This document shows positions 256-22,495 of a DNA stretch of 22,748 nt, piece by piece (the first letter of the stretch is position 1; every line of letters begins with the position of its first letter). This DNA comes from Candidatus Nanohalobium sp. Lineage in GTDB: Archaea; Nanohalarchaeota; Nanosalinia; Nanosalinales; Nanosalinaceae. The DNA is taken from NCBI GenBank assembly GCA_042217545.1, contig JBDGSM010000028.1:10834-33581 (forward strand). Direction: 5' to 3'. Position numbers and translations under genes: made by a program. The notes under the pieces were generated by a model. The model ran no database searches, had not been told where the DNA came from, and worked only from the letters and a program-made list of their open reading frames with translations.

Positions 256-852
256 ATGTTCTATGGTGTTCATAATTTTCGAACATTCCTGGTGGTTTGT
301 GAGTACAAGAAGGATTATTTAGGCCTCGAAACAGCAATCTGCCACATGGACCGGGGCGAGGATGATCAACTTGCGGTGTTCGTGTCTGAGGACAGTAGGG
401 TGCTAGAGGAGATCATCGATGAAGTCGATGTGATTGTGAGTGATAGATCAGATCTTGAAGGCCTTGCTCCCGGTAAGTTCCACGACCTGGGTCATGATGA
501 GGGGAGGGTTCTCGAGCTGCTGAGATCGAAGGGTGTTTCCACCGCTGTTTGCCTGGGGTATCGACGGCTTTTCTCCGGTTCATTCCTGGATCAGGTTGAA
601 TGTGAGATGTACAACCTGCATCCATCGATCCTTCCTGCGTTCAAAGGCCTTGATGTGTACGAAAGAGTGGTCGATAGAGGTGTCAAGGTTTCAGGTGCTA
701 CAGTTCATAGGGTTTCCGAGGAGATGGACGAAGGAGAGATCATCGATCAGATCAGTTACGGTGTCCCTGAGGATGTGAGTGTTGGAGAGTTGAAGAAGTA
801 TGCGGCGAAGTATGAGGTCCGAATTGTGAGAACAAATCTAGAAAAGTTGTGA
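256..852 (+). CDS. formyltransferase, PurN/GART-like (formyl_trans_N fold)
   Basis: YNLHPSILPAFKG...SGATVHRV.EEMDEG.II with catalytic N, H and D; lacks the N-terminal SGxGSN loop of true PurN. Confidence 0.8.
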   Translation: MFYGVHNFRTFLVVCEYKKDYLGLETAICHMDRGEDDQLAVFVSEDSRVLEEIIDEVDVIVSDRSDLEGLAPGKFHDLGHDEGRVLELLRSKGVSTAVCLGYRRLFSGSFLDQVECEMYNLHPSILPAFKGLDVYERVVDRGVKVSGATVHRVSEEMDEGEIIDQISYGVPEDVSVGELKKYAAKYEVRIVRTNLEKL

Positions 853-897
853 CTATAGAATAGTTAAAAATTTAAGTGTGGTTGATTAAGGTACGTT

Positions 898-1767
898 ATG
901 TCTATTCAGAGTCCGTCCTCGTCGAAGACATATCCGAAACATATGGAAGACCCTGAGGAATGGTTTGAACCAGAGAAAGAAGTCCCCGTTTTCTCGTCCT
1001 GGGACGAACAACTGAATACCCTTCACACAGGAAATAGTGCCGGTAATAGAGCGATGCGAGAGCGAGGAGTTACTTTCGATGAGAACCTTTCTAATCACAG
1101 TCCTTTTGCGGATAATGCCAAAATACACCATGAGGTCAAGGTAAAGGACAATATACCTTCCGAAAGTCGTGATCACCTGCTAGAAGATGAGGCAGGAGAC
1201 CTAAATCTTGAATTGGATGAAGAAGGCAGAATGTACCAAGTTAACATGTTTGAGACCATGGACTGGAACGGAATGGACATTAATGGAGAAAATATACCAA
1301 CCACAGACCGGGAGACAGATCTGCTAGGGCTTCACGCCATAATGTATGAGGACAGCTCAGGTGACGAGTACCTTCTACACTGGGATCCATGCAAATACGA
1401 CAGCGATACAGGGGAGAAGATGAAGTTTGAAGAAATAGATGGGCTACCTGACTTAAGCAGTCCTGTCAACACTGAAGAAAATGATAACTACTTCGAGAGC
1501 TACGAGAATCATGGCCGAGAAGAAGGTCTTGACCAGGTTTACAACTCACTTATTACTGGAAGCAACAATATTTACAACGAAGCTAATTCAGAGATGGAAG
1601 AAGAATCCGCGAGAAACAACGAGGACGACCTTGATACTAGTGAAAGTGTTTACGATAAAGCCTGGGAAGGAGAAAGATGGCGAGCAATGGCTGACGCAGT
1701 TAGGAACCTTAATGATTCAATGAGCCGAGGATACACACCTGAAAAAGGCAGAACAGTCACTTTTTAG
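898..1767 (+). CDS. acidic hypothetical protein (family A)
   Basis: 289-aa D/E-rich ORF with an AT-rich TATA-like tract upstream; a decayed copy of its C-terminus lies at about 2600-2704. Confidence 0.75.
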   Translation: MSIQSPSSSKTYPKHMEDPEEWFEPEKEVPVFSSWDEQLNTLHTGNSAGNRAMRERGVTFDENLSNHSPFADNAKIHHEVKVKDNIPSESRDHLLEDEAGDLNLELDEEGRMYQVNMFETMDWNGMDINGENIPTTDRETDLLGLHAIMYEDSSGDEYLLHWDPCKYDSDTGEKMKFEEIDGLPDLSSPVNTEENDNYFESYENHGREEGLDQVYNSLITGSNNIYNEANSEMEEESARNNEDDLDTSESVYDKAWEGERWRAMADAVRNLNDSMSRGYTPEKGRTVTF

Positions 1768-1807
1768 TCTGATAAATAACCAATATGAGATAAAGGTGAA
1801 GAATTCT

Positions 1808-2251
1808 ATGGATAAAGAAGAAATTCAGAACCATCTGGAAGAGGATATCAGAGACCTCATTTCATCTATAGCAGAACAGATAGAGGAAATGATGTTCGAA
1901 GAGGCTGAGAAACAGCTGGAAGAAGAAATTGAAAGAGATGAATTCCCAAGAAGAATGCCGGTCATCCGAAACCAGCTTGAAATACCAGAAGAAATCAGGG
2001 AACTCGAGAAACTAAAAGCCAACCTGCAGGAAGCCGATAAAATACTGCATGACAACCCAAAAACGATCGGAGACGAGCACGAATTCATAGATAAACCTTA
2101 CAGCCAGGAACCATCCAAAGAGGAGCTCAAGCAATTATCAGAAGACCTGGAGGACATAGATAGGGAAAATATACTAACCTGTGATAAAGAGGAGATAAGC
2201 AAAGCCAAAGAAAAAATAGATTCCTTCAAGAAAAGCCGTGAGAAGGCCTAA
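1808..2251 (+). CDS. acidic helical hypothetical protein (family B, copy 1)
   Basis: ATG at 1808 gives MDKEE, the same start as paralog 2745-3161; shared EEA(E/D)KQL, E(I/V)PE and NL(Q/K)E. Confidence 0.75.
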   Translation: MDKEEIQNHLEEDIRDLISSIAEQIEEMMFEEAEKQLEEEIERDEFPRRMPVIRNQLEIPEEIRELEKLKANLQEADKILHDNPKTIGDEHEFIDKPYSQEPSKEELKQLSEDLEDIDRENILTCDKEEISKAKEKIDSFKKSREKA

Positions 2252-3269: not shown

Positions 3270-4304
3270 ATGACTGAAACTATGATTGAAAGGATTAGAG
3301 AGGAGATGAGTGAGGAAGGCCTTGAGCTTTTTGTGATCAGTGATTCAGATAATATTCTCTGGGCTACGGGTGAGGAGTTTTCCGGGTATATCTTCCTGAC
3401 TCAGGACCGGGTTGACGCAGTACTTCCCAGGTTTTTCAGGTATGAGGATGTTTCTATGTTTGACAGTGTAAGTTATGGTTTCAAGAGAAGTGATTACAAG
3501 GAGGTTATTGATGATATGGTTGAGAGGTTTTCAGGGATGGACACTGCGATCGATGAGGAAAACGATACTATAGAGGATGAACTTGATGCTGAAGTATCTG
3601 GCATGGTTACGGAGATGAGGAAGGTCAAGACTGAGGAAGAGGTCGGGAAGATCAGGAAGGCCTGTGAGATCACGGATCGGGCTTTGAAGGATCTGAGGCA
3701 GGAGCTGTTTTCAGGCCTTACGGAGTGGGAGGCAGTAGGCAGGTTGAAGCAGTTCTATATTGGCGAAGAGGTTCAGGAGTCTTTCATAACTAATGAGGGG
3801 GAGTCTCTGGTTCAAAGGAATAGTTTGAGGCCTCATAGAGGTCCGGAGTCCGAGGTTGTGGAAGGTGATGATCTGGTGATTGTTGATACCGGTGCTCGTT
3901 TTGAAAACTACTGTGCTGATGTCACCCGTACTTACTGTGATAATGCTTCTGACAGGCAGCAGAAGGTGTTTGATGATGTTAAAGAGGTTCAGCGGCGGAT
4001 GATTGATATGATTGAGCCAGGTCGTTCGATAGCTGATGTTAAGCAGAGAGAACTGGATATTTTTGAGGAGAAAGGATATGAAGTTGAGAAAAATGTTCTT
4101 TATTACAGTCATGGTATAGGTATTGTAGCGCATGAGCCCCCTACTATAACCCATGAGTCTGAAGAAGAGTTTAAAGAGGGCATGGTAGTCACTATAGAGC
4201 CAGGCCTGCATATAGAAGGCCTTGGCGGGGTCAGAATAGAAGACACGGTTCTCGTAACCGAAGAAGGGTCAGAAAGGCTTTCAAAAGCCCCTATCGAGCT
4301 TTAA
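3270..4304 (+). CDS. pepQ: Xaa-Pro aminopeptidase/prolidase (M24B)
   Basis: Metal-ligand motifs VDTG...ADVTRT, SHGIG...HE, IEPG, GVRIED; creatinase-like N-domain. Confidence 0.9.
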   Translation: MTETMIERIREEMSEEGLELFVISDSDNILWATGEEFSGYIFLTQDRVDAVLPRFFRYEDVSMFDSVSYGFKRSDYKEVIDDMVERFSGMDTAIDEENDTIEDELDAEVSGMVTEMRKVKTEEEVGKIRKACEITDRALKDLRQELFSGLTEWEAVGRLKQFYIGEEVQESFITNEGESLVQRNSLRPHRGPESEVVEGDDLVIVDTGARFENYCADVTRTYCDNASDRQQKVFDDVKEVQRRMIDMIEPGRSIADVKQRELDIFEEKGYEVEKNVLYYSHGIGIVAHEPPTITHESEEEFKEGMVVTIEPGLHIEGLGGVRIEDTVLVTEEGSERLSKAPIEL

Positions 4305-5254: not shown

Positions 5255-5323
5255 GAGGCCTTACATTCGAACCTGTTTCCCGGAGTTTAAATCACTGGGC
5301 TCCCGTCCACATGGACCAGGCAT

Positions 5324-5919
5324 TCAGAAGTCGTAATCCCTGATTTTCTGGAAATCATTCATCGGCCCGAAGTCGTTCTCGCCGTTTGAGTCAAGGACCA
5401 GTGCTTTGTCCGAAAGCTCCGTATATGGCTTAAACAGCTGTCGGATACCAGGGGTGCTGCAAAGCTGATTTCAACCGCTCCCTGCTTGGTGACACTGCCC
5501 AGAGCTGCAGCTATCCTGTTGCTATCGGTTACTACGTCGTCAACAAGGAGAACTTTCTTCCCGGCCAGCAATGCATGGTTGTCGGAGTACTTAAGTTTTT
5601 CAAGGCCTAGCAAGCGGCTTTTAACTATTCTGGCATGGTCTATGAACGCACCGGAGACCTGGAACTTGTTCTTAACAGTTCTATCGACCCAGACAGTTCC
5701 CTCGTCAGCTACACCAGCCACGACGGTATTGCTCTCGCCAGGAACATCTATGCTTTCCGCAAGCCGGAGATCTAACTCCGTTCCAAGCTCTTCTGCTACA
5801 GTTTTTGCCACTTCAAATCCGCTGATCGAGCAAGCAAGGACTATATCCGGGTCAAGGCCTTCCTCAGCCATCTTCTCCGAAAGTTTCCGCCCCGCCTCAT
5901 CTCTGCTTTCAAAAGACAT
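5324..5919 (-). pseudogene. phosphoribosyltransferase-like protein, probable 1-nt frameshift near 5419
   Basis: FESRDEAGRKL start and LLVDD core; PRPP loop degenerate (VDDVVTDS). Adding one G at about 5419 gives an acidic tail ELSDKALVLDS...DYDF* ending at 5324; could be a sequencing error. Confidence 0.55.
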
Positions 5920-6048
5920 ACAGTAAAAAAAGAGATCGCGACTTAAACAGGATTTTATATCTCAAAAGATACTGTCATCAGCTGGGGTCAAGATGTATAC
6001 AAGAAGATGTAGCGACCGCAGGCCCGAATAAGGCCTCCTGTACATGAA

Positions 6049-6426
6049 TCAAGGTGATCGGGCCAGTATCTCCACCTCGTAACCCTCAGGATCCTTCACA
6101 AATGCGTAATTCCCGGGACACTCCTCTGGAGGCCTGTAATCCTCTCCACCGGCTTCAACGGCTTTCCGGTATGCATCCTCCAGGGCCTGACCTTCTTCGG
6201 TGTGGATGGCGATATGGCCGAATCCTTCACCTTTCTCGTACTTTTCATCCTCTCCATGGTTGTAAGTTAACTCTAGCTCCGCGGTCTGGTCTTCAGGTCC
6301 CAGGAAGTACAGGTCAAAGGTCTCGTTCTCCTTCTTCTGCTTTAGCTCCCAGCCAAAGGCCTTCTCGTAGAACTCTATGACTTTTTCGGGGTCGGAAACT
6401 CTCAGCATCGTGTGCGCTATCTTCAT
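6049..6426 (-). CDS. gloA: lactoylglutathione lyase / glyoxalase I (VOC family)
   Basis: HTMLRV.D, LELTYN, G.GFGHIA, FVKDPEGYEVE; ATG at 6426. Confidence 0.85.
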   Translation of the reverse strand: MKIAHTMLRVSDPEKVIEFYEKAFGWELKQKKENETFDLYFLGPEDQTAELELTYNHGEDEKYEKGEGFGHIAIHTEEGQALEDAYRKAVEAGGEDYRPPEECPGNYAFVKDPEGYEVEILARSP

Positions 6427-6460
6427 GCATAGCAAAGTAGGCCTCGAGGTTTTTGTCTCT

Positions 6461-6847
6461 TCAGTTCTGCGGCAGGATATTCACTGACTCGGTATGCTTG
6501 CTGCCTTCAAGACTGTTGAAGAACTCGATCACGTCCTCGGCGACACCATTCGTGTGGAAAACCTCCAGGCAGTTCTCGCCGTCCAGCTTGCTGTGGAGCT
6601 GGGTCGTTATAACATCGTTGAATTCGTGCGCGATCTCAGCAATCTTCTGTTCTCTTCTGTGTGGATGTCTTGCGATGATAACTGCGTTAAGGTTTCCTTC
6701 CAGCCTCCGATTCTCCTGCATCTCCTGATGCAGATTCTCCACTGCCTTCCGTATCAGCTCGCTCCGTCCATTGAAGCTGGCTTCGTCCTGAATCTCATCG
6801 ATTTTTTCCAGAGTTTCTTCATCCAGAGAAAGACTTACTATTTCCAT
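6461..6847 (-). CDS. NikR-like ribbon-helix-helix transcription regulator
   Basis: N-terminal RHH (VSLSLD...RSELIRKAV) plus a NikR C-domain with H...H..L...CLE. Confidence 0.8.
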   Translation of the reverse strand: MEIVSLSLDEETLEKIDEIQDEASFNGRSELIRKAVENLHQEMQENRRLEGNLNAVIIARHPHRREQKIAEIAHEFNDVITTQLHSKLDGENCLEVFHTNGVAEDVIEFFNSLEGSKHTESVNILPQN

Positions 6848-6947
6848 ACAGAATGGGCTAATAACGAGGCCTTAAAAATTAATAACCGGGGCCGGTTAGA
6901 CAGGTGTACCAGATAACTTTAAGGCCTGAAATCCCCTCAACACTGGT

Positions 6948-7520
6948 ATGGGAAAGATGCCGGAGATCCCGGAACACAGCTACAGGGAATACGCCAAGAT
7001 CGCTCTCAGAGTTTCCATGGGCTGGATCTTCCTGACCGCGGGCCTTTCAAAACTCGTCGAACACGGACTCGCCTACCCCAAGGCCTCGGGATACCTCAGC
7101 TCCGCTGTCCCGATCGCCACGCCCAAGATAACGCTCGGCTTCCCCGAGATAATAGGCCTTCCAGGACTTCTGCTTGTGAAAGCCGGGACTTTCCTCGTTG
7201 AACCGCTGATGCAGCTCCTCGCCTCGGCACCGTTCATCGGAACACTTGTCGTGGCTTCAGAGCTGTTCATAGGCCTTTCACTTCTCCTCGGCCTTCTGAC
7301 CTGGCTCGGGTCAGGTCTCGGCGCCTTCATGATGCTCCTGTTCTACTACGGGAACGCGGAGTGGAGCCACGGCCTCCTCAACAGCGACGCGGTCTACCTG
7401 ATCCTGTTGATCTCCCTGATCGCATTCAGAGCCGGTGAAAACTTTTCACTCGACAGCTATATCTCCGAGAAGATAGAAACAGACAACCGGATACTGAAGG
7501 CCTTCCTCGGCGTCAGATGA
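6948..7520 (+). CDS. DoxX/DoxD-family membrane protein
   Basis: LRVSMGWIFL.AGLSKL and ELFIGLSLLLGL motifs, about 4 TM segments, AG..FSLD tail. Confidence 0.8.
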   Translation: MGKMPEIPEHSYREYAKIALRVSMGWIFLTAGLSKLVEHGLAYPKASGYLSSAVPIATPKITLGFPEIIGLPGLLLVKAGTFLVEPLMQLLASAPFIGTLVVASELFIGLSLLLGLLTWLGSGLGAFMMLLFYYGNAEWSHGLLNSDAVYLILLISLIAFRAGENFSLDSYISEKIETDNRILKAFLGVR

Positions 7521-8592
7521 AGTCCTTCACGGTCTCGAAGAAGGACTTGTCCGTCTCCTTCTCCTTCTTGTACTTCTCGAAGACCTCTCTGTCTTCCTCT
7601 TCCGCGTCCTCCGGTATTTCGACGTCCAGCTTCACGTAGAGGTCGCCGTAACCTCTTCTGCCAGGCATCCCCTTACCCGATAAACGCAGGACCTGGCCTG
7701 GCTGGGCGCCTTCAGGAACCGTCACGCTGTAAGTACCGGAGGGAGCATCGATCTCCGCCTCGGCTCCGAGGACTGCGTCCCCGAGGCCCAGGTCCAGGGT
7801 CGTGAACAGGTCTGAATCCCTGCGCTCGAACTCATCGCTCGCTTCAACACTCACGTAGATATAGAGGTCGCCCGAGCGGCCTTTCCTCGACGCATTTCCT
7901 TTACCTTGGAGCCTGACCTTCTGACCATCTCTCACACCCTTCGGTATATCCACGGTGATCTGCTCCTCTTCCTCCACAAGGCCTTCACCGTTGCATTCGC
8001 TGCATTTCTCTTCAGGTATCTCCCCTGTTCCATTACACTCGGGACATTCCTGTACTGTCTGAGCTCTTCCGAGAGGAGTCCTCTCGACCTTCTTGACGCG
8101 GCCTTCTCCGCCGCAGTTCGAACACGTCGTAGTATCTCCGTTTTCAGCACCTGTCCCGTCACAGGCCTCGCATTCGTGCTTCCTGGAGACCTGGAAGCTT
8201 TTCTCCACTCCTTTGTAGGCCTCTTCCAGCGTGATGCTTGTCTGGATCCGGAGGTCTTCTCCTTTCTGCTGTCTCCTGCCTCTTCCTCCGCCGAAGCCTC
8301 CTCCCCCGAAGATCTGCTCGAAGATGTCCTGGAAGTTGGAGGCGGCCTGGCGTCTTCCGCGGGAGGAAGAGCCCTCCACTCCCTGCTTTCCGAACCTGTC
8401 GTACTTCTTCCTCTTCTCCTCGTCTCCGAGGACGTCGTAGGCCTTGTTTATCTTCTTGAACTTCTCCTCGTCAGCAGCCTCAGAGTTGCTGTCCGGATGG
8501 TATTTCTTCGCTTTTTTCCTGTAAGCCTTCTTGATCTCATCCTGCGACGCGTCTTCGCTGACTCCCAGAATTTCGTAGTATTCCTTCGCCAT
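7513..8592 (-). CDS. dnaJ: chaperone DnaJ
   Basis: J-domain with HPD, G/F region, four CxxCxGxG repeats, C-terminal domain. Confidence 0.97.
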   Translation of the reverse strand: MAKEYYEILGVSEDASQDEIKKAYRKKAKKYHPDSNSEAADEEKFKKINKAYDVLGDEEKRKKYDRFGKQGVEGSSSRGRRQAASNFQDIFEQIFGGGGFGGGRGRRQQKGEDLRIQTSITLEEAYKGVEKSFQVSRKHECEACDGTGAENGDTTTCSNCGGEGRVKKVERTPLGRAQTVQECPECNGTGEIPEEKCSECNGEGLVEEEEQITVDIPKGVRDGQKVRLQGKGNASRKGRSGDLYIYVSVEASDEFERRDSDLFTTLDLGLGDAVLGAEAEIDAPSGTYSVTVPEGAQPGQVLRLSGKGMPGRRGYGDLYVKLDVEIPEDAEEEDREVFEKYKKEKETDKSFFETVKDFI

Positions 8593-8691: not shown

Positions 8692-10635
8692 TTATTCCTC
8701 CTTTTCCTCAGCCGATTCTGATTCAGATTCGGCGTTGGTATCGACTTCCTCGTAGTCTGCATCAACTACTTCATCGTCGCCCGAGTTTGCTGCGCCTCCC
8801 ATTCCTCCCATGTTCTGAGCGGCCTGTTTCAGGTCTTCCTCGGACATGTTGGATGGATCAACGCCTCCCATTCCGCCGGCTTGCTGGCCGTCGTACATCT
8901 CCTGGCCGATCTCCTGTAGCTTCTGTTCAAGGCCTTCAATAGCTTCTTCCAGTTCTTCCTTCGCTTCTCCGAGGTTATCGGCGTCTTCCGTTTCCGCTCT
9001 GACTTCTTCCAGGTTCTCGATTTCATCTTCGACTTCATCGATGGTTTCATCATCTACCTGGTCTTCAAAGTTCTCAAGCTGGCTCTGGGCCTGGTTGATC
9101 ATCGAATCCGCTTTATTTTGCGCTTCGATGAACTCCCGCTTCTTCCTGTCTTCTTCCTCGTGTTTCTCGGCTTCCTCCTTCATGTCCTCGATCTCATCAT
9201 CATCCAGGCGTGAAGCGTCGTCGATGCTGATCGAGGCCTCTTCTCCACTCTGCTGTTCCTCTGCAGAGACCTGGAGGATTCCGTCAGAGTCTATCTCGAA
9301 GGTTACCTCGATCTGTGGCTGTCCGGCAGGAGCAGCAGGGATTCCCTGTAAATTGAACTGTCCCAGGGACTTGTTATCCCTCGCCATCTCTCTTTCTCCC
9401 TGTACCACGTGGACGGTGACCATGGTCTGGTTGTTCTGAGCTGTAGTAAACGTCTTGCTTTCTTCTGCTGGAATAGTTGTGTTCTCCTCGATAAGCCTCT
9501 CTGTGAGGCCTCCCTTGACCTCTACACCAAGACTCAACGGTGCCACGTCGAGTAGGAGGATGTCGTCCATGTCTCCGGAGATGCTTCCTGCCTGGGTCGC
9601 TGCTCCATCCGCCACTGCTTCTGCAGGGTTGACTTCCTGGCTTGGCTTCTGGCCTGTGATAGTCTGTACGTGTTCACGGACTGCTGGAACTCTTGTCGTT
9701 CCTCCTACAAGGATCACCTCGTTGATACCGGACTTGTCGACTCCAGCATCGTCTATGGCTTTCTCTGTAGGATCTGTCGTCCTCTGGATTAGGCCTTCGA
9801 CAAGTTCCTCGAACTTGCTTCTCGTCAGTTCTATGTCGACGTTGTAGGTGTCTCCATCTTCCTGATGGATGAATGGTATGTTGATTTTGGTCTTCTTACG
9901 CGAAGAGAGCTCTTTCTTCGCCTCTTCAGCGTTTTCCCTGATTCTCTGCATCGCCTCATCGTTGCTTGAGAGATCGATTCCGTTCTCGTCCTCGAACTCT
10001 TCCAGAACGTAGTCGACGATCTCCTGATCGAAGTCGTCTCCTCCCAGGTCGTTGATTCCCTCTGTACTCTGGACCTCGTAGATCCCGTCTCCCATCTCCA
10101 GGACGGTGACGTCGAAGGTTCCTCCTCCGAAGTCGTATACGAGAACTGTCTGATCCTTGTCGTCGTCAAGGCCGTACGCCAGGGAGGCGGCTGTCGGCTC
10201 GTTCAGAATCCTTTCAACTTCAAGGCCTGCTATCTCTCCAGCATCCTTCGTCGCCTGCCTCTGAGTGTCATCGAAATGCGCTGGGACTGTGATTACTGCT
10301 TTATCGAATGTTTCTCCTGTCTTCTCCTCTGCATCATTTTTCAGTTTCTGAAGGATCTTGGCAGAGATCTCCTGTGGCGTGTAGTCCTCTCCTTCAAGCT
10401 CCACGGTGTAATCTTCTCCCATGTGGCGCTTGATGGATTTCACGGTATTTTCCTGGTTCGTCAGCATCTGGTTCTTCGCAGGCTTGCCGACGAGAAGCTC
10501 TTCGTCGTCAAAGGCCACGATAGAAGGCGTCACACGCTCGCCTTCCGCGTTTTCTATTATCTCTGGTTCTCCATTTTTTACATGAGCCATTGCGCTTCTT
10601 GTCGTACCGAGGTCGATACCGAGAATCTTACCCAT
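8692..10635 (-). CDS. dnaK: chaperone DnaK (Hsp70)
   Basis: [30 protein letters not shown] tail; ATG at 10635 with AGGTG SD; lacks the N-terminal insert, as in archaeal/Gram-positive DnaK. Confidence 0.98.
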
Positions 10636-11358: not shown

Positions 11359-12496
<1,138 letters not shown>

Positions 12497-13142: not shown

Positions 13143-13226
13143 ACACCCGGAAGATAGGCCTTGAAGTTTTTAATTCGGTACGAAAAACCGGAAACTCTTA
13201 AATTGTTATCTTCCGGTAGTAACTTC

Positions 13227-13968
13227 ATGGTTGAGGGTTACTGGGGTCACGAGGAATAACTCTAACGGTGTGGAAATACAGGGTTCGCTGGATAGAGCGC
13301 CTGAAGGCCTAGGTATCAACGTCTGCGACTCCAACGTCAACGAAGATGAGATGTACTGGGGGAAAACTTACGACACGGGGGAACCTGTTCTCGTAAAGGA
13401 TGGCTCTGTCGAGTTCGGAAACGCGGCTCCGGCGAACCTGCTGGCTTAAGAACTTTTCTCCGATACAGGGATCAACGTTCCGGACGTCGGATACTCCTCG
13501 GAAAGAGATGAGGTGTATATGGAGGCTCTCAACAGTTACAGCAAAGCGGTCTCGACTATAGGCGAAGGTGAACAGGAGGAGTTCCTGGATCACGTGGCTG
13601 CGAAGGCCTTGATCGGCGACTCCGATTTTATGCATAATTTCGGGAGGTTGGAAGGCGGTTACGCGTTGATCGATCCTGATCAGGCTGGTGCGCCGATTCA
13701 AACGTTTGAAAATAAGATTTTCGACTACTTGGAGGTTGTAAACTCGGGAACATCTTTCAATGTCTCTCATCAGGACTTTCAGGACGCCCTGGGAAGAGTT
13801 TTCCGTGAGGCCGGTGAACAGCATCTTGAGGACTCTCTTTCGAAGCTTGAAGCTTTCAAAGATGATATACCCGCTTACGCCAACTTTGAACCTGTGTTTG
13901 TCCGTGAGAACTTTCGCTCTGCTCCAAACTCCGGGGAAGTTACTGGAGCTGAAAGGCCTCGTGTTTGA
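13227..13968 (+). pseudogene. HipA/PI3K-like kinase pseudogene
   Basis: Track ORFs 13231-13449 and 13513-13968 share one frame, split only by TAA at 13447. Joined: VLVK...ANLLA*ELF...GINVP...ALIGDSD..HNF......LIDPD. ATG at 13227 is in frame if one G of 13235-13237 is removed. Confidence 0.6.
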
Positions 13969-14023
13969 TTCTGGTGTTCTGTGAATCCTAGAGTTGATAT
14001 ACCTCCTTTGTTAAGAACTGTTT

Positions 14024-14506
14024 ATGGCTGAGAAGGATCATCCCTTTGTCGATGCGACGGCGCGTAAAACCTCTACTATCGTCACCAAGCACAGTATTGC
14101 TATACCTGAAGATGAGCAGAAGTTCAGGAAGTCGGAGCGGGCCTGGAACTGGGAGAAGATTGTTGACCTGATTTTCCCGGAGGAGCAGTCGCCTAAGAGG
14201 AACAGGTACGCGAAGATCTTTCTCCGTGAATTGAAGGATGAAGGCAGTATTGACTCGGAGAAGCTAAATTCGTTCGATGAATGGGGTCATGAGAAAGGCC
14301 TGAGTAATTTGAAGAACAATATTTTGCCAAAACTGCGGCGTGTAGGTATAATTCAGTACGAATACCTCGAGTATCGTGGCGAGAGAGAAGGCTCTCAGGG
14401 CCGTCGAAAAGTCATAAAGCCAGCAAAATCTTTCACTTCGATACTTGACTCTATGGCGAACGGCTGGGCGGCTTTCGAGTCAGCTGCATACCAGAATCAG
14501 GATTGA
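14024..14506 (+). CDS. hypothetical protein, possible winged-HTH DNA-binding domain
   Basis: 160 aa, less acidic than its neighbours; ILPKLRRVGIIQY resembles a wHTH recognition helix and wing. Confidence 0.65.
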   Translation: MAEKDHPFVDATARKTSTIVTKHSIAIPEDEQKFRKSERAWNWEKIVDLIFPEEQSPKRNRYAKIFLRELKDEGSIDSEKLNSFDEWGHEKGLSNLKNNILPKLRRVGIIQYEYLEYRGEREGSQGRRKVIKPAKSFTSILDSMANGWAAFESAAYQNQD

Positions 14507-14593
14507 GGCCTGTTAACCTCCGCCTTTCTTCTTAATCGTAATGGGGTAGAGGGCTCTAGCGATATTTAGGCCTGCAGCTTCTCTTTCAAACTT

Positions 14594-14710
14594 CTAGAGC
14601 GCTGTGGCTGTGACGAGGTTTGCCTTTGCCGAGACCCTGGTTTCCTGGCGTCTCTCATCTTCTGCCTGGGCCTGAAGCTCTGTCTCGAAGTTGCGTACGT
14701 TAGCGTTCAT
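14594..14710 (-). CDS. unannotated 38-aa small protein MNANVRNFETELQAQAEDERRQETRVSAKANLVTATAL
   Basis: GAGGTG SD at 14722-14727 plus a CA-rich spacer, like the histone and dnaK starts; host-like E/Q/R content. Confidence 0.6.
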   Translation of the reverse strand: MNANVRNFETELQAQAEDERRQETRVSAKANLVTATAL

Positions 14711-14980
14711 TTTGGTTGTTGCACCTCTTTCGTGTTGGCGTGTGTTTTTGTGATCCTCGATGGGTTGTACACAATCTGTGGTGGAAGTTTGGATAAGGCC
14801 CGTAGACAGATCCCACCTTGCAAGCAGGATCTGCCCTTTCTTGGCCTGGTTCCTTCAGGGATATAACATATCCCTTTAACCTCTGTGTCCCATAGAGGCA
14901 GAGGAACCATTCCAATCCAAAACCCTTGATGTTCGCGGTCGGTCATTGGCCCGTCGTACAGGCCAAGACTTCATCCCGCT

Positions 14981-15109
14981 TTACTCTGCCAGGTAGTTAA
15001 TAATGGAGAATGTAGCCTTGGCCTGGTTATGGGTGGGTCTCACCAGATCCATTGCCATGCACATGTTCCCGGCGGACCAAGTAGTATTAACCAAGGCCAT
15101 TTTCGACAT
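14981..15109 (-). CDS. possible leaderless 42-aa ORF MSKMALVNTTWSAGNMCMAMDLVRPTHNQAKATFSIINYLAE
   Basis: ATG lies about 21 nt after TTTTAAA; composition is not acidic, so it may be incidental. Confidence 0.25.
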   Translation of the reverse strand: MSKMALVNTTWSAGNMCMAMDLVRPTHNQAKATFSIINYLAE

Positions 15110-15129
15110 ACTCTAATAGTCGACCCATG

Positions 15130-15136
15130 TTTAAAA
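15130..15136 (-). promoter_or_regulatory. TATA-like box for the 14510-15110 transcript
   Basis: TTTTAAA just past the stop of 15146-15898, with spacing like other promoters in the window. Confidence 0.5.
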
Positions 15137-15145
15137 GTCTTCTGT

Positions 15146-15898
15146 TCAGTCCAGGTATGGCTCGAAAATATCCGCTCTCAGCTGCTTATGCGTGCGTTCA
15201 AGAAGATCTCGCAGATTCACGGTATCATACTGGTTGTACTTGACCAGTTTTCTCAAAGCTTCTTCATCTCCCTGGTTTTCGTACTTTTTCCAGAGCCGGA
15301 TGGCTTCACGGCCGTCTATGTCCTCGAGGTCTCTCTCGATATTCATCTGTTTCTCGATATTCTTCAGGCCTCCAGAATAACCGAGGCGCTTGCAGGTGTA
15401 CATCAGGTCGAGATGCGGGTTCTCTATCTGCATGTCGAAGCTTTTCTCCAGGAATGGCTGGTCGAAACGTTTACCGTTGAAGGAAACAATCATGGAGGCC
15501 TTGAAGAACTCCTGCTTCAGGTTTTCCCGGGTCAGGTCCTGGCCTCGGATCAATGTCTTGGTCTCATCTCCTCTGTGAATGCTTACAGTAGTGACCTTGT
15601 TCCTCTCCGGCTTCAGACCTGTTGTCTCGATGTCGAAGAATGCAGCGTCGTCCTCAAAGTTCCTGTAGGTCCTCCAGAGTTCCTTCTTCGGAAATTTCTG
15701 CTTGAAGAATGCTTCATTGTTGACTTCCAGGTTTTTCCTGGCTTTCCTGATGAAGTTCATCAGTTTCTCTTTCCGGGCATCGCTGATATCTGATGTGTCT
15801 TCGACGTGATCCCAGTGGGTGATCCCTTTCTTCCAGTATTTTTTCTCGGTCTTCTCTCCGATGCCAGAAACGGGTATGAAACTGTTCTCGATGCGCAT
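15146..15898 (-). CDS. YprB-like RNase H-fold (DEDD) exonuclease with N-terminal HhH
   Basis: FFDIETTGL, SFNGKRFD.PFL, HLDL, YNQYD; N-terminal SGIGEKT. Confidence 0.88.
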   Translation of the reverse strand: MRIENSFIPVSGIGEKTEKKYWKKGITHWDHVEDTSDISDARKEKLMNFIRKARKNLEVNNEAFFKQKFPKKELWRTYRNFEDDAAFFDIETTGLKPERNKVTTVSIHRGDETKTLIRGQDLTRENLKQEFFKASMIVSFNGKRFDQPFLEKSFDMQIENPHLDLMYTCKRLGYSGGLKNIEKQMNIERDLEDIDGREAIRLWKKYENQGDEEALRKLVKYNQYDTVNLRDLLERTHKQLRADIFEPYLD

Positions 15899-15953
15899 GT
15901 AACTAAAAAATAAGAGAAGGAGAATAGGTTATAAGTCAAACCCTTCCGCAGCT

Positions 15954-16151
15954 TTAAGCGGAAGTTCTGACGTCGTCAGCCTGAACCGTCTTACGACCGG
16001 CGTGTTCTGCGTACTGCTTTGCTTCGCGAGCTCTGTCTTCTGCGTATCCTTCTAGCTCATCTCTTAGCTCTTCTACAGCATTTTCAGAAACTCTTGCTGC
16101 GCCAGCCTGCTTGATGATCCTCTTGACGGGTGCGAGTGGTAGTTCTGCCAT
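15954..16151 (-). CDS. archaeal histone (HMfA/HMfB family)
   Basis: MAELPLAPVKRIIK.AGA.RVS...HAGRKTV..DD; SD GGAGGTGA at 16158-16165. Confidence 0.96.
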   Translation of the reverse strand: MAELPLAPVKRIIKQAGAARVSENAVEELRDELEGYAEDRAREAKQYAEHAGRKTVQADDVRTSA

Positions 16152-16390
16152 TTGTTGTCACCTCCGTGAATGAAAGCCTCTAAAGCCTATTACCTTATTC
16201 TTTGCGCTCCTATAAAAACGTTTGGCATTATTCAGGCCTCAAATCAGGTTAAAGCATACTAAAGCACTCTTGTTTTAGTTTAGGGGTTTTGAAGACTCCG
16301 TTTAATATCTCAGCTTCTCCCCTGATTATTATTCTCTCCTACAATGGTGGACGAAAACCTATTACCTGAGTGCCGAACCAGGAAGGCCTG

Positions 16391-17050: not shown

Positions 17051-17122
17051 ATTCAGAAGAATATGCTCCCAGGGATAAGAACCCCACGGGAATACTTAAC
17101 TTTCCAGATTCTCTTACCCGGT

Positions 17123-20100
17123 ATGGAACTCGAGGCCCAGGTTCTTGACGCTGACTACATGGTAGAAGACGGAGAAGTAGCAGTAAGAGTATTCGCCAGG
17201 TCCAGAGATGGAGAAGACTACCTCATCAGAGACGCAGAGTTCAAGCCATATCTCTACATAGTACCTGAAGAAGGCCTAGAAGAACTGAGAGAGACGATAG
17301 AGGAGGAAAGGCCTTTCAGGGAGGACGAAGACGAACTTCCAATCCTCGAGATCGAAGAGAAAGAGATGATCGACGGCAAAGAAGAAGTGAAGGTTCTGAA
17401 AGTTTCCACGAACATCCCTGCGAACGTTCCCAAGTTAAAGAACAAGTTCTGGGATCTCGAGGAAACAAAGGAATGCAGGGAGTTCGACATACCTTTCTAC
17501 AGGAGATACATGATGGATAAAGGCCTCAGACCGAACCAGTGGCACAGATTTTCGGGTGAAAGCTTTGAACCGCAGGATATGGAGAAAGGCCTTGAAGTAG
17601 AGAGCATAGAGGAGGAAGAGCAGGGAAGTCCGGACTGGAATATGCTTGCGTTTGACCTGGAGGTCTACGAGAACGAGATAATCATGGCCTCGCTCTACAG
17701 CGAGGATTACGAGAAACTTCTTACTACTGAGGAGATAGATGAGGAGTACGTCGAGGTTGTGGAGAGTGAAAAAGAGCTTATAGAGCGTTTCGTTGAGATC
17801 GTGAACGAGAGGAACGTCGATATACTTACAGGCTACAATACTGACGAATTCGACTTTGATGTTCTGAGGGATGGGTCGAACAGGCACAACATGACGCTCT
17901 CACTGGGGCGTAACGGGGAGAGGATGAAGTTCAACCAGAGGGGCCGTTTCAAAGGCGCCCGTTTGAAAGGCAGGATGCACCTGGATCTCTACCCGTTCAT
18001 CGAACACGTTCTTGCACCAGGTATTGACTCGGAGACTCTGGATCTGGATTCGGTTGCGGAGGAGATGCTTGGCCGGAACAAGGACGAGATGAGTTGGGAG
18101 GACATGAAGAAAAGCTGGGAAAACAAGGAGAACCTCTCAGAGTTCGCCCAGTATGCCCTCAAAGACGCGGAACTTGCACTGGAACTTGCTCAAGAGATAG
18201 TCCCACAGGTCACAGAGCTTTCCAGGATCACAGGCCTCATTCCATTCGACACCTGCAGGTTGACCTATGGACAGTTAACAGAGAACTTCCTGATAAGGGA
18301 GGCGCATCTCAGAGACCTGCTGGCGGAGAACAGGCCTTCACAGGACTCACGCAGGAAGAGACAGCGACAGGGCGCATATTCAGGAGGCTTTGTCTACACG
18401 CCGGAGGAAGGCCTCTACGAGGACATAGTAACTCTGGACTTTCGCTCCCTTTACCCGACGGTGATGGTGGCGCACAACATCTCGCCCGACACGTTGAACA
18501 TCGAGGACTGTAGAGATCAGTTCGAGATAGAGGAGTTCGACTACAGGTTCTGCCAGGACAAGCAGGGTTTCTTCCCGGAGCTGATTGAAGGCCTCGTGGA
18601 CGACCGATACACGATAAAAGAGGAGATGAAGGAGGAAGAGAAAGGTTCCGCTGATTACAAGGCCCTGGATAATGAGCAACAGGCGAAGAAGATTCTGGCG
18701 AACAGTGTTGGTCCTCATACCTACCTCGTCCTGGAAGATCCAGGAGGCAAGATTGTTGTGAAGTCAATCAAGAATTTCTACAGTTCTCTGGGTGCTGAGG
18801 AGAAGCCAGTGAGAGGTAGTAATGTAAAGGATGTAGGTGGATGGCGTGCTTTGTCTGTTGAAGGAGATAAAGCTGTCTTCAAACCGGTTTACGCCGTCAG
18901 CCAGCATGAACCGGACGATGCGTACAGAGTGAGGACGAGGATGGGGGAGGTCACTGTAACAGGTGATCACAGCTTGATTTCTATGAAGGGGGAGTCGAGC
19001 AACAGGATTCGAGACTCTAGCTTTGATGGGTTGGAGGAGGTGAAGGGTTCAGAGGTGGCGGAGGATGATGTTATAGCACAGGTGAAAGACCTGGAGTTAA
19101 AGGAGTCCCAGCAGGAAGTAGTAGTTCCAGAGGTATTGAAAGACTGTCCTGAGGACTTCTGCCTCTACATCCCTAAATCCGAAAATCTGGAGAAGAGAAA
19201 CTGGTACGAGCGAAGGAAAGACCTTATTGAAGCAGTTGAAGACGGTAAGAACTCCTCAGATATCAACTCGTCCGATAGCTTCGGAAACAAGGTCTTGGCG
19301 AAAGCCAGGGAGGAAGGCCTTGTCAGGAAGGTAGAAACTGTCGGAGACCAGGGAAACATCTATGAATGCGAGGTGACGGAGAAGGGCAGGGAATACAGGG
19401 AGTTCTATGATACCTTCCAGAAAAGAGAGAAAACTTCCAGCCACTATGTCATACCGCTGGAAGAGCTCGAGGAACTTCCTCCCAGAGAGATACTTGAGAA
19501 ATCCTCAGTGGCAAACAGGAGCGGCCGAGCCAGGAACAAGATACCAGCGGTCATAGAGCTTGACCAGGAGTTCGCATCTCTTCTGGGATGGTTCGTCGCG
19601 GAGGGGCACTTCAGAAAAGACGGCAAGGAGAACGAAGATTACACTGACTCTGCCATAGCCTCAGATAATCCCGAGCACAGGGAGGAGGTTCAAGGCCTTT
19701 TCAGAGAGGTGTTTGACTACGATGCCAGTATAAACGGGAGACAGGTCAGCTGCTGCACTTCCACGATAGCAAGACTGCTTTCCAGACTCTGCGGTGATAA
19801 GGCTGAGAACAAGAAAGTGCCGGCACCCATCTTCAACAGTGAGAGACCTGTGAGAGAGGCCTTTTTGAAGTCCTACTCGCTGGGAGATGGAGATGAGGAT
19901 GGCAGAAGGTTCTCCACGATAAGTAAAAAACTACAGGCCGGGCTCTCAACACTTCTCAAGGAACAGGATACGGTACTCCATAACGGCTTTGACACTGAAA
20001 CCTACAGAGTATCGAAGAGATCCAGGACACAGGGACAGAAAATAGTTTCAGGAGATCTATACGGACAGAACCCGATAGAAATAGAGCAGATAGAAAAGCC

Positions 20101-20995
20101 TGAAAAAGTATACGACATATCAGTAGAGGATACAGAGAAATTCGTCACGGCAGAAGGCCTGGTCCTACATAACTCTTTCTACGGTTACCTGGGCTATAAC
20201 GGCGCCCGCTGGTACTCGAGAGAGGCCGCGGAGGCCACGACTTACATGGGCCGTGAATACATCGAGGAGACTATCGAGATGGCTGAAGCAGAAGGCTACG
20301 AGATCGTCTATGGGGATACGGATAGCGTATTCCTCAAAAAAGATAATATAAAGGAGGATGTCCATGGATTCCTAGATAAGGTAAACTCGGAGCTTCCGAA
20401 GTTCATGGAGCTTGAGTTCGAAGGCTTCTTCAAAAGAGGTTTTTTCACTTCAAAGGATTCTGGTGAAGGCGCAAAGAAAAAGTACGCATTGATCGACGAG
20501 GAAGGCAACATGAAGATCACGGGCTTCGAGCAGGTACGCAGGGACTGGAGTCCGATAGCGAAGAGAACTCAGAAAGAAGTCCTGAGAAAAGTCCTGGAGG
20601 ATGATGTCGATGAGGCCTTCGAGGTTGCGAAGGAGCGTATCGAGCAGTTGAAACAGGGCGAGATCCCGATTGAGGATCTGAAGATCTACACTACATTGAC
20701 TAAGCCGCCTGAAGAGTACGAATCGACTTCCCCGCATGTAGAGGCTGCGAAGAAGGCCAAGCAGCGTGGAGAGGAGATCCAGGAGGAGTCAACGATCACT
20801 TATGTCATCACGAGTACCGGGCATTCGATCTCGGACAGGGCGGAGATACTGGAGTACGCGGAGGACTACGATGCTGATTACTATATCGAAAACCAGGTTA
20901 TCCCTGCCGCTCTCCGCGTGCTGAAGGTCTTCGGATACACAGAAGATCAGCTGAAAGGCAAGGGCAAGCAGAGCGGCCTCGGAAGGTTCCAGTAA
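17123..20995 (+). CDS. polB: family B DNA polymerase precursor with one intein (extein about 800 aa)
   Basis: Exo I DLE, Exo II YN.D.FD, Exo III Y...D; DFRSLYP, K...NS.YG, YGDTDS; uracil-pocket EFDIPF; PIP box QSGLGRF; likely ATG at 17123. Confidence 0.97.
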   Translation: MELEAQVLDADYMVEDGEVAVRVFARSRDGEDYLIRDAEFKPYLYIVPEEGLEELRETIEEERPFREDEDELPILEIEEKEMIDGKEEVKVLKVSTNIPANVPKLKNKFWDLEETKECREFDIPFYRRYMMDKGLRPNQWHRFSGESFEPQDMEKGLEVESIEEEEQGSPDWNMLAFDLEVYENEIIMASLYSEDYEKLLTTEEIDEEYVEVVESEKELIERFVEIVNERNVDILTGYNTDEFDFDVLRDGSNRHNMTLSLGRNGERMKFNQRGRFKGARLKGRMHLDLYPFIEHVLAPGIDSETLDLDSVAEEMLGRNKDEMSWEDMKKSWENKENLSEFAQYALKDAELALELAQEIVPQVTELSRITGLIPFDTCRLTYGQLTENFLIREAHLRDLLAENRPSQDSRRKRQRQGAYSGGFVYTPEEGLYEDIVTLDFRSLYPTVMVAHNISPDTLNIEDCRDQFEIEEFDYRFCQDKQGFFPELIEGLVDDRYTIKEEMKEEEKGSADYKALDNEQQAKKILANSVGPHTYLVLEDPGGKIVVKSIKNFYSSLGAEEKPVRGSNVKDVGGWRALSVEGDKAVFKPVYAVSQHEPDDAYRVRTRMGEVTVTGDHSLISMKGESSNRIRDSSFDGLEEVKGSEVAEDDVIAQVKDLELKESQQEVVVPEVLKDCPEDFCLYIPKSENLEKRNWYERRKDLIEAVEDGKNSSDINSSDSFGNKVLAKAREEGLVRKVETVGDQGNIYECEVTEKGREYREFYDTFQKREKTSSHYVIPLEELEELPPREILEKSSVANRSGRARNKIPAVIELDQEFASLLGWFVAEGHFRKDGKENEDYTDSAIASDNPEHREEVQGLFREVFDYDASINGRQVSCCTSTIARLLSRLCGDKAENKKVPAPIFNSERPVREAFLKSYSLGDGDEDGRRFSTISKKLQAGLSTLLKEQDTVLHNGFDTETYRVSKRSRTQGQKIVSGDLYGQNPIEIEQIEKPEKVYDISVEDTEKFVTAEGLVLHNSFYGYLGYNGARWYSREAAEATTYMGREYIEETIEMAEAEGYEIVYGDTDSVFLKKDNIKEDVHGFLDKVNSELPKFMELEFEGFFKRGFFTSKDSGEGAKKKYALIDEEGNMKITGFEQVRRDWSPIAKRTQKEVLRKVLEDDVDEAFEVAKERIEQLKQGEIPIEDLKIYTTLTKPPEEYESTSPHVEAAKKAKQRGEEIQEESTITYVITSTGHSISDRAEILEYAEDYDADYYIENQVIPAALRVLKVFGYTEDQLKGKGKQSGLGRFQ
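18704..20173 (+). mobile_element. intein (490 aa) with LAGLIDADG homing endonuclease at the region III (pol-b) site
   Basis: KILAN|SVGP...VTGDH...LLGWFVAEG...FLKSYSLGDG...VYDISV...LHN|SFYGY. Confidence 0.95.
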
Positions 20996-21028
20996 CGGTT
21001 TTTTAACACCGGATGAGAAGGTTTTCCT

Positions 21029-22300
21029 ATGGTCCTGGGCTTCTCCGGATTCGCCGCCAACGCAGTTATAGGCCTTATCTCTATTGTTCTACTTGTTTTT
21101 GGAGCTGAAATCGTTGTTTCCAAGATGCAGGCAGTTGCGAAGGCCTTCGGAGTCTCCGAGGTCGTTATCGCGATGACCATCGTTGCGGTCGGTACCTCTC
21201 TACCTGAACTGGCTCTGCACTTTATAGGATCGCTTAACATACTACAGAGCTCGGGAGCCATCTTCCAGGTATTTTCCGGCGATATAGCTCATCTTCTGCT
21301 GGTTAGTCACGCAGAAGTAGTCCGGAGCATGGCGGAACAGGGCCTTATAACGGCTCAGGCCTCTGCGAGTTCCACAGAAGTTTTCAGGGAGACATCTGGT
21401 GCAGTTCTGGGCGCGAACATCGGTAGCGACGTTGTCCAGCAGACGCTGGTCCTCGGACTTGTAATCTTTTCCTCGTCGCTGCTTGCTGACCGGCACAGCT
21501 TCCGTTTCTCCAGGAAGTTCCTGATCAGGGATTATGCCCCCATGATGGGGACCACGCTTATGACCCTGATACTAGCACTGAACTGGAGAGGAGTGCTCAG
21601 CTTCCTGACTGGAGGGCCTCTCAAAGTCTCCGGAACTCTCACCCGGCTTGACGGCCTTGTACTGGTAGGTAGCTTTGTAGCTTACATTCTGTACCAGTAC
21701 TCGACCAGGAACGAGGAGCTAGCAGATCAGGGCGACGCCGAACCATCTTCAAGACCCAAGATCGACTTAATTATCGGCCTGTTTGCAATGGGCCTTGTAC
21801 TCGGTTCTGCGGAGATATTTCTTAGAGTTGTGGAGCTTGCAGTCGAACAGACAGGTCTCTCAGGATCGATGATCGGTGTTGCATCTGTAGGTGTCGTTTC
21901 TGCGTTCCCCGAGATGATAACAGCTATCTCTGGCCTTCGCCAGGGAAGTGAAGGTGTCTCGCTGGGAACGCTGATAGGAAGCAACATAACCAACCCTCTG
22001 CTTGCCATCGGCTCCGGAGCGGTCATCTCTACTTACGCGGTTCCAAGGCCTCTGGTGCTCTGGGACCTGCCGATGGAAACCATTACGGCAGGCCTACTCC
22101 TCGGATACATGTTCTCGAAGGAGGCGGTCGGAGATGTACTTGCAAAACCTGCGGAAAAGATCGGGCTTGAACGTACAGCTAAGACATTGAGGGAGACTGA
22201 GAACAGGGTTCTCTCCATAGCCGGAGCAGTATTCCTTATCGCACTCTACTTCATCTACCTGTACGTCAGGTTCACTTACTTCCAGTACGACTTCGCATAG
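21029..22300 (+). CDS. sodium:calcium antiporter (CaCA, YrbG-like)
   Basis: Alpha-repeats GTSLPE...GANI and SAFPE...GSNI; multiple TM helices. Confidence 0.9.
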   Translation: MVLGFSGFAANAVIGLISIVLLVFGAEIVVSKMQAVAKAFGVSEVVIAMTIVAVGTSLPELALHFIGSLNILQSSGAIFQVFSGDIAHLLLVSHAEVVRSMAEQGLITAQASASSTEVFRETSGAVLGANIGSDVVQQTLVLGLVIFSSSLLADRHSFRFSRKFLIRDYAPMMGTTLMTLILALNWRGVLSFLTGGPLKVSGTLTRLDGLVLVGSFVAYILYQYSTRNEELADQGDAEPSSRPKIDLIIGLFAMGLVLGSAEIFLRVVELAVEQTGLSGSMIGVASVGVVSAFPEMITAISGLRQGSEGVSLGTLIGSNITNPLLAIGSGAVISTYAVPRPLVLWDLPMETITAGLLLGYMFSKEAVGDVLAKPAEKIGLERTAKTLRETENRVLSIAGAVFLIALYFIYLYVRFTYFQYDFA

Positions 22301-22309
22301 GTGTAAGAA

Positions 22310-22495
22310 ATGAAGAGGTCAAGTAAAATCAAGCTGGTGTTCGGGTTCGAGGCCTTATCTCTTATAGGCATAGTAGCAGGTATTTACTTCCTTGAAGCCG
22401 ACGTGGCAGAGGCCTATGGTCTGGAGTTCCTAGGCGCAGATCTTGCCGCCATGATAACCACTTTCGGACTGTTAAAGATGAGAGAGCTTACATAG
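22310..22495 (+). CDS. small two-TM membrane protein
   Basis: 61 aa, two hydrophobic segments, AGGTG SD-like sequence upstream, follows the antiporter. Confidence 0.55.
   Translation: MKRSSKIKLVFGFEALSLIGIVAGIYFLEADVAEAYGLEFLGADLAAMITTFGLLKMRELT

Follow-up and report, generated by a model that had tools for sequence, protein, structure and literature searches.

The stretch of Candidatus Nanohalobium sp. considered here (the window: 22,748 nucleotides, contig C21:10834-33581 of the genome designated G000) contains open reading frames (ORFs) for housekeeping proteins such as DnaK, DnaJ, GrpE and an intein-bearing family B DNA polymerase, PolB (all by Pfam), and throughout it the palindromic hexamer AGGCCT recurs at a density far above chance. 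A preliminary description, made from the sequence alone, had counted about 76 copies, put the excess at roughly 14-fold and likened the word to HIP1, a highly iterated palindrome of cyanobacteria. The exact count is 76, the first copy lying at 321 and the last at 22410–22415, and dinucleotide-preserving shuffles of the window (n = 100) gave 6.60 ± 2.40 copies with a largest value of 12, none of the 100 reaching 76. The features that carry the sites are as follows; a position is called permissive where the encoded amino acids allow AGGCCT, and converted where AGGCCT is present there.

321–22415, strandless palindrome: span of the AGGCCT sites, 76 sites, 3.3 per kb.
3270–4304, plus strand: M24 peptidase (Pfam), 6 sites, 6/6 permissive positions converted.
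5256–6927, no strand: spacer copies, five sites outside ORFs, starting at 5256, 6031, 6439, 6867 and 6922.
7513–8592, minus strand: DnaJ (Pfam), 4 sites, 4/7 permissive positions converted.
8692–10725, minus strand: DnaK (Pfam), 5 sites, 5/5 permissive positions converted.
13156–16389, no strand: seven sites outside ORFs, starting at 13156, 13305, 13954, 14506, 14568, 16234 and 16384.
17063–20995, plus strand: family B DNA polymerase with intein (Pfam), 13 sites, 13/18 permissive positions converted.
22350–22415, no strand: two sites outside ORFs, starting at 22350 and 22410.

In all, 62 of the 76 sites fall in 21 ORFs and 14 outside ORFs. Those in ORFs are distributed over the frames AGG-CCT (7), xAG-GCC-Txx (20) and xxA-GGC-CTx (35), and 60 of 97 permissive positions are converted.

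The same density is found across the whole genome. G000 is a draft of 1,032,751 bp in 82 contigs with a guanine plus cytosine (GC) content of 49.3%, and it holds 3699 copies of AGGCCT (3.6 per kb). In the genome-wide hexamer comparison that the preliminary description had proposed, this is 15.1 times the zero-order expectation, 13.0 times that of a dinucleotide Markov model and 2.4 times that of a third-order Markov model; no other of the 4096 hexamers is as common, and the next palindrome, AGATCT, reaches 2.3-fold. Enrichment extends to all 82 contigs (from 1.33 per kb upwards, with a median of 3.61) and is therefore not local, which disposes of the idea that the excess might be confined to one contig. 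Copies of GGCC with other symmetric flanks are low in G000 (CGGCCG 0.31, GGGCCC 0.17 and TGGCCA 0.43). Four enriched genomes (G000–G003) were examined first, two of them (G001 and G003) being single contigs, and the two single-contig genomes are 98% and 95% complete; in G003, our enriched comparison genome, AGGCCT stands at 19.6-fold. Two genomes which are not enriched, G011 and G018, served as further comparisons; G003 and G011 were compared whole and G018 over 627 kb (61% of the genome).

Coding and non-coding DNA are both affected, as had been claimed for the window. In a crude set of 1027 G000 ORFs (ATG start, at least 80 amino acids, 81% of the genome) there are 2899 coding sites, namely 515 in the frame AGG-CCT, 976 in xAG-GCC-Txx and 1408 in xxA-GGC-CTx, while the remainder of the genome has 800 sites, at 4.2 per kb. 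A count within non-ORF DNA gave 762 sites in 192 kb, 19 times chance. Short spacers carry AGGCCT at 24 times chance and long non-ORF stretches at 16.8 times. Permuting synonymous codons within genes gave an expectation of 555.5 ± 18 coding sites, and permuting codon order one of 278.6 ± 17, against the 2899 observed. The excess was also kept under a dicodon Markov model applied to the two frames that span three codons, with 792 expected versus 1408 observed for xxA-GGC-CTx and 536 versus 976 for xAG-GCC-Txx. Amino-acid usage alone thus fails to explain the word, as had been proposed from the window; the cause of AGGCCT acts on DNA.

The degree to which the available places are filled is high. 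Of 4292 permissive coding positions in G000, 2871 (66.9%) are converted, compared with 12.9% under synonymous permutation, and these counts give by arithmetic an odds ratio of about 14. The dipeptide RP is written AGG-CCT in 71% of cases in G000 and 83% in G003 versus 11% in the non-enriched G011; X-G-L is written xxA-GGC-CTx in 70%, 71% and 8%, and [KEQ]-A-[FLSYCW] is written xAG-GCC-Txx in 60%, 72% and 9%, in the same order of genomes. Given a coding odds ratio of about 14, a 19-fold excess in non-ORF DNA and a 24-fold excess in short spacers, a single per-site bias thus accounts for genes and spacers alike. Over the same aligned columns, the amino-acid contexts themselves are more numerous in G000 (280 RP, 810 XGL and 622 XAT) than in G011 (166, 554 and 348), and only 426 of 1195 G000 sites rest on a context common to G011. 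The protein sequences of G000 are bent to hold more copies of AGGCCT.

The copies repel each other at short range. Gaps below 50 bp are depleted in G000 (12 observed versus 130 expected below 10 bp, and 67 versus 126 from 10 to 20 bp), and the fraction of permissive positions converted rises with the distance to another site, from 40% at 6–15 bp through 49% at 15–30 bp and 60% at 30–50 bp to 70–74% beyond. The returns of the force that maintains AGGCCT taper off within some 50 bp. Flanking bases were compared in DNA lying outside every ORF of at least 60 amino acids. There the favoured bases in G000 are A at position −1 (0.39, with T at only 0.11) and T at −3; in G003 they are G (0.45), A (0.49) and T (0.49) at positions −1, −2 and −3. 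These flanks contribute just 0.05–0.33 bits per position and the core is the 6-bp palindrome, but a weak preference that extends past the hexamer and varies with lineage points to a protein reader more than to plain chemistry.

It might be supposed that the function lies in RNA, the palindrome being present in transcripts of either strand and serving as the target of an RNA-binding protein or nuclease. AGGCCT does occur in all frames and in short spacers that are likely transcribed, and close pairs capable of forming hairpins are avoided. None of the results here speaks for RNA reading specifically, however, the long non-ORF stretches are enriched to a similar extent (16.8-fold), and an RNA role of HIP1 was not supported in Xu et al. 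2018 (PMC5861425). We regard this explanation as highly improbable.

Comparison with relatives, another check suggested at the outset, indicates how the sites come and stay. Between the window and the SG9 record on the enriched side (L009; nucleotide identity 77%), 31/44 and 30/54 sites are conserved (56–70%) versus 24% at other hexamer positions. The outcome is reversed for a pair from one genus, the enriched L011 and the non-enriched L010 (nucleotide identity 76%), in which 3/39 sites are conserved versus a background of 22%, and the L010 counterparts of L011 sites show changes at each of the six positions and to every type of base, frequently 2–5 letters at once. The AGGCCT sites of L011 are the derived state relative to L010. 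The conservation between species taken together with the diversity of the L010 counterparts argues that sites arise from many sequences and are then kept.

Such build-up could in principle be the work of biased repair or gene conversion without uptake, in which a site-reading nuclease or glycosylase turns near-misses in heteroduplex or damaged DNA into AGGCCT. Very-short-patch repair works in this way, a model of this sort was proposed for the highly iterated palindromes (HIPs) in Elhai 2015 (PMC4390886), and it agrees with the equal strength of enrichment at synonymous and non-coding positions and with the fast build-up in L011 relative to L010. It does not agree with the transition neighbours, which in the non-ORF DNA of G000 are raised (GGGCCT 1.9-fold, AAGCCT 1.5-fold, AGACCT 1.6-fold) rather than depleted; they look like a halo of mutational decay and count against a Vsr-like correction. 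Nor does it agree with sites arising via all substitution types at six positions, often through 2–5 changes, and it leaves the interference below 50 bp unaccounted for. Profile searches of 31 genomes, including the four enriched ones, found no Vsr (PF03852, 0/31) and no C5 methylase (PF00145) in G000–G003. We consider biased repair of this kind unlikely. The methylation-directed repair suggested in the preliminary description is disfavoured because the transition neighbours of AGGCCT are enriched.

The link to a methyltransferase that the comparison with HIP1 had implied likewise found no backing. Besides the lack of PF00145 and Vsr matches in the four enriched genomes, nothing in PF01555 or PF02384, searched over the same number of genomes (31), tracks the trait, the matches in enriched genomes being a weak one to a 297-residue protein also present in non-enriched kin and a type I HsdM in G003 alone. 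A scan of the G000 ORFs for the amino-methylase motif IV gave 5 matches, all housekeeping-like or surface proteins, and no DNA methylase candidate (PF02086 was not profile-searched). A C5 methylase gene is carried by the non-enriched G017 (73 sites), between two YgjP-like genes.

On a different explanation, an abundant nucleoid or segregation protein with sequence specificity would bind the copies; each copy would be under weak selection, and the footprint of the protein would make a second site within about 50 bp useless. The conservation of 56–70% of sites versus a 24% background, the uniform strength in genes and spacers, the interference below 50 bp and the dyad-like, lineage-specific flank preferences in non-coding DNA are all in its favour, and selection and a nucleoid role were inferred for HIP1 in Xu et al. 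2018 (PMC5861425). Against these must be set the need for effective selection on thousands of sites in a symbiont with a small genome, the presence of both states within one genus (see below), which is odd for a core architectural system, and the failure to find a DNA-binding candidate exclusive to enriched genomes (HxlR, TrmB-like, PadR, SWIM zinc finger and Ogt-like proteins were considered). On balance we view a nucleoid or segregation protein as doubtful.

A count over all 50 species genomes of the family shows 13 to be enriched in AGGCCT. They belong to four genera: g1 (3/3), g26 (5/5; 0.95 to 4.75 per kb), g29 (3/3) and g2 (2/6), the last of which holds both enriched and non-enriched species. 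The enriched genomes are G000–G003, G037–G041, G053–G055 and G057; within g2, G003 and G057 have the trait and G056, G058, G059 and G060 do not. The cause is thus specific to lineages, as the preliminary description had supposed. A strong, uniform, DNA-level force that can be switched on or off by lineage makes and keeps AGGCCT, tolerating protein change, and we infer from this that a sequence reader exists which can be gained.

Not all non-enriched genomes are neutral with respect to the word. G018 is strongly depleted, with 55 copies of AGGCCT in the whole genome, and in 627 kb of it GGCC stands at 0.15 of expectation whatever the flanks, which is the classical mark of GGCC-specific restriction. 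One might accordingly ask whether AGGCCT is a self-mark tied to defence or restriction, either modified by a system outside the families searched or read by a nuclease which spares AGGCCT-dense DNA. The GGCC-directed restriction pressure seen in G018, the C5 methylase of G017 and the low frequency of GGCC in other flanks in G000 can be cited for it. Yet restriction normally depletes a word, there is no methylase common to the enriched genomes and no motif IV candidate in G000 (with PF02086 outside the profile search), and a Mre11/Rad50-like ATPase described below has only weak SMC-like matches in PADLOC. A defence-related self-mark therefore seems improbable to us. No CRISPR arrays were found in G000 or G003.

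The relationships within the family bear upon how often the trait arose. In a tree built from DnaK, DnaJ and GrpE, L011, which is enriched, and L010, which is not, are sisters (97/99), together with the J07AB43 record, and this group stands apart from the clade formed by the window and SG9. In the syntenic region L010 is 79% identical to G003 and SG9 67%. G003 is no closer to G000 than are G011 or G018 (median identity difference of +1.2 points over 490 proteins), and a single-protein tree of the family, based upon a conserved protein of 529 amino acids, is a polytomy. Of 1365 aligned sites 558 are common to G000 and G003; for 60% of these common sites G011 has the amino-acid context as well, whereas for 80% of the sites found in one lineage only the context is missing from G011. 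A common origin of the two enriched clades is thus unsupported by the DnaK, DnaJ and GrpE tree, by the identities of the 490 proteins and by the site contexts, and convergent filling of the same permissive places would seem to fit better. On that understanding AGGCCT would have been switched on at least twice, or else its reader moved between lineages. The patchy distribution may also be due to loss in several lineages.

Certain genes of G000 and G003 are far more alike than the remainder. IleRS, ArgRS, LysRS, SerRS, DNA ligase, thymidylate synthase and dTMP kinase are 13–39 identity points closer between these two genomes than to G011 (examples lie at G000 C49:5236-8307 and C51:1291-3486), and this may represent transfer between enriched lineages. 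Clusters for glycogen metabolism, gluconeogenesis and pyruvate dehydrogenase are common to G000 (C26, C10) and G003 (881–900 kb, 948–956 kb), with up to 84–87% identity, and G011 is without them.

We looked for a determinant among the G000 ORFs present in G003 and absent from G011 and from the 61% of G018. This screen left 89 long and 17 short candidates, most of them metabolic (glycolysis, glycogen metabolism, pyruvate dehydrogenase). Two candidates come close to exclusivity. One is an operon at G000 C12:131-3100 which specifies a Mre11/SbcD-like phosphoesterase of 345 amino acids and a Rad50-like ATPase of 655 amino acids. With this query it was found in 5 of the 36 genomes searched, that is, in the three enriched genomes which are at least 92% complete (G000, G001 and G003) and in only 2 of 32 non-enriched ones, G034 (52% identity) and G014 (31%). 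In PADLOC the ATPase gave only weak SMC-like matches.

The other, an acidic protein of about 163 amino acids (G000 C25:10822-11292), belongs to no Pfam family and is predicted to form three long helices (mean predicted local distance difference test score, pLDDT, 78.6), and the predicted fold offers no hint of DNA binding. It occurs only in G000, G001 and G003 among the 36 genomes and also on six metagenome contigs, one of which is not enriched: this contig, L221, carries a 66%-identical copy and has 0.17 sites per kb with 2/32 permissive positions converted, and on that account the protein was rejected. The window ORF at 10759–11358 was likewise set aside: no copy was found in G001, and non-enriched genomes have it. 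The HxlR, TrmB-like, YgjP, PadR and Ogt-like candidates, a Methyltransf_11 protein, proteins of 223 and 460 amino acids, a 205-residue fragment and a SWIM zinc finger candidate all occur in non-enriched genomes. NreA has a match in the 627 kb of the non-enriched G018, and the DNA ligase and tRNA synthetases stand out only by their high G000–G003 identity. The protein of 87–96 amino acids with a CxC...CxH motif, which we take to be of the SWIM type, is duplicated in G000 (C40:5982-6233 and C12:5738-5995) and occurs in each of G000–G003 and in three genomes that are not enriched.

Among known systems the nearest kind is HIP1 (GCGATCGC) with the alternate HIPs of cyanobacteria, as described in Elhai 2015 (PMC4390886), Xu et al. 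2018 (PMC5861425) and Rodriguez-Cruz et al. 2026 (PMC13756078). Like HIP1, AGGCCT is a short GC-cored palindrome at least 15-fold over chance, occurs in all gene frames and in spacers, is conserved between related genomes beyond background, and is lost or absent in some lineages; for HIP1 too the cause has long been unexplained. It differs in having six letters rather than eight, in its 3–5 copies per kb versus about one, in its archaeal host, in the short-range repulsion of its copies and in that no cognate DNA methylase was found (PF02086 not being among the profiles searched), whereas HIPs go with one. Deviations of HIPs by a single letter favour the outer letters; in the non-ORF DNA of G000 the outer variant GGGCCT is raised 1.9-fold, and the inner transition variants AAGCCT (1.5-fold) and AGACCT (1.6-fold) are raised too. 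The likeness drawn in the preliminary description therefore holds for the statistical behaviour of a highly iterated palindrome and fails for the methylase; AGGCCT is archaeal, shorter and denser. Full-text literature searches found no published account joining AGGCCT with nanohaloarchaea, haloarchaea, DPANN or archaeal over-representation, and a term search of the SG9 preprint (10.1101/029934) found no mention of a palindrome, motif, restriction or methylation.

Other systems resemble it in part. Very-short-patch repair of the Dcm/Vsr type is unlike the present case in its requirements, since Vsr is absent from the 31 genomes, PF00145 from the enriched ones, and the transition neighbours are enriched. 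Restriction-site avoidance involves the same family of words, with G018 showing the classical GGCC depletion, but AGGCCT has the opposite sign and is near saturation. Chi is an asymmetric word, oriented with replication, only few-fold enriched and read by RecBCD or AddAB. AGGCCT shares with it the character of a short over-represented word tied to recombination nucleases, in that the Mre11/Rad50-like operon partly tracks the trait, and departs from it in being palindromic and far more enriched. The uptake signal sequences (USS) of Pasteurellaceae and DNA uptake sequences (DUS) of Neisseriaceae are asymmetric bacterial words of 9–12 bp read by known competence proteins, and they are thought to spread by uptake bias plus recombination. 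AGGCCT, although a 6-bp palindrome rather than an asymmetric word of 9–12 bp, is like them hyper-abundant in coding and non-coding DNA, shapes proteins, is spaced more evenly than chance, has lineage dialects and needs no methylation.

Because AGGCCT resembles USS and DUS in shaping the proteome, in its even spacing, in its dialects and in needing no methylation, and because it is partly tied to a recombination nuclease operon, we tentatively suggest that it may be the recognition word of a putative factor and act in the manner of a signal for DNA uptake or exchange which recombination spreads. A further reason is that HIP1 raises transformation efficiency and has been proposed as an uptake sequence, according to Rodriguez-Cruz et al. 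2026 (PMC13756078). AGGCCT fills about two thirds of the possible positions, in genes and spacers alike, and under this proposal a roughly uniform per-site advantage would keep it in place. The advantage would likely come from a putative protein reading AGGCCT, a reader that could be gained and lost; uptake, or else recombination into the chromosome, would favour DNA bearing the word, and copies would accumulate by molecular drive, as proposed for USS and DUS and lately for HIP1. The fuller form of the proposal, in which AGGCCT would be the first archaeal "self" word for DNA exchange, is more doubtful. It supposes that a gainable and losable reader favours AGGCCT-bearing DNA, that recombination brought the word to near saturation, with two thirds of permissive codons and about a thousand amino-acid contexts rewritten, and that it was turned on independently or by reader transfer in at least two non-sister lineages, without a methylase.

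Several points weigh against an uptake or exchange signal. No determinant, receptor, uptake system or modification was identified, though no search aimed at competence families was made, and none of fifteen candidate genes checked for distribution is exclusive to enriched genomes; the Mre11/Rad50-like operon also occurs in the non-enriched G034 and G014 and so is not sufficient. Known uptake sequences measure 9–12 bp, are not palindromic and occur about once per kb. A 6-bp word tells self DNA apart only by its density, and with a site every 270 bp each added site should bring little marginal gain in uptake unless the recombined tracts are very short. Selection for the binding sites of an architectural protein predicts all of these statistics equally, and the 50-bp interference could be an avoidance of hairpins between self-complementary copies. 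Natural transformation is not known from nanohaloarchaea, although no search aimed at it was made. Finally, the ORF calls are crude (ATG start, at least 80 amino acids) and relatives are not independent samples.

Whatever the reader, short palindromes of such abundance have posed a problem from the description of HIP1 onwards, and selection, repair bias and DNA uptake are still debated as their cause. AGGCCT is an unusually clean case, with genomes of about 1 Mb, two thirds of the places filled and no confounding methylase, and a DNA-level force visibly reshapes the proteome of a reduced symbiont. With 13 species possessing the trait and 37 without it inside one family, and one genus showing both states, the cause is testable. 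The word is also a strong marker, useful when these lineages are binned and when DNA that they acquired recently is to be recognized.

Two ORFs of the window lie in stretches free of sites.

898–1767, plus strand: ORF without an assigned family, with a GC content of 0.44, in the site-free stretch 651–2243, 0/3 permissive positions converted.
11486–12511, minus strand: TnpB/IS605-OrfB-like ORF with a Cas12f1-like TNB domain (Pfam), within the site-free stretch 11355–12677, 0 sites, 0/4 permissive positions converted.

The TnpB-like ORF is present as a single copy in G000 and is without a match in G003, in G011 and in the 627 kb compared from G018; it is probably a recent arrival, and the ORF at 898–1767 looks like another. 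As for the stretches themselves, G000 has 46 gaps of at least 1200 bp between sites compared with 44.6 expected. Long gaps thus occur at chance frequency, and therefore neither gap in the window is anomalous by its length, the one around TnpB included.

The PolB of 17063–20995 is 1310 amino acids long, with an Intein_splicing match at residues 597–1037. Elsewhere in G000, C9:32587-57504 forms one open frame of 8305 amino acids, presumably a giant surface protein. In G011 the 529-residue protein used for the single-protein tree lies in an open frame of 1569 amino acids (C1:24802-27798) and matches in two pieces, which suggests an intein.

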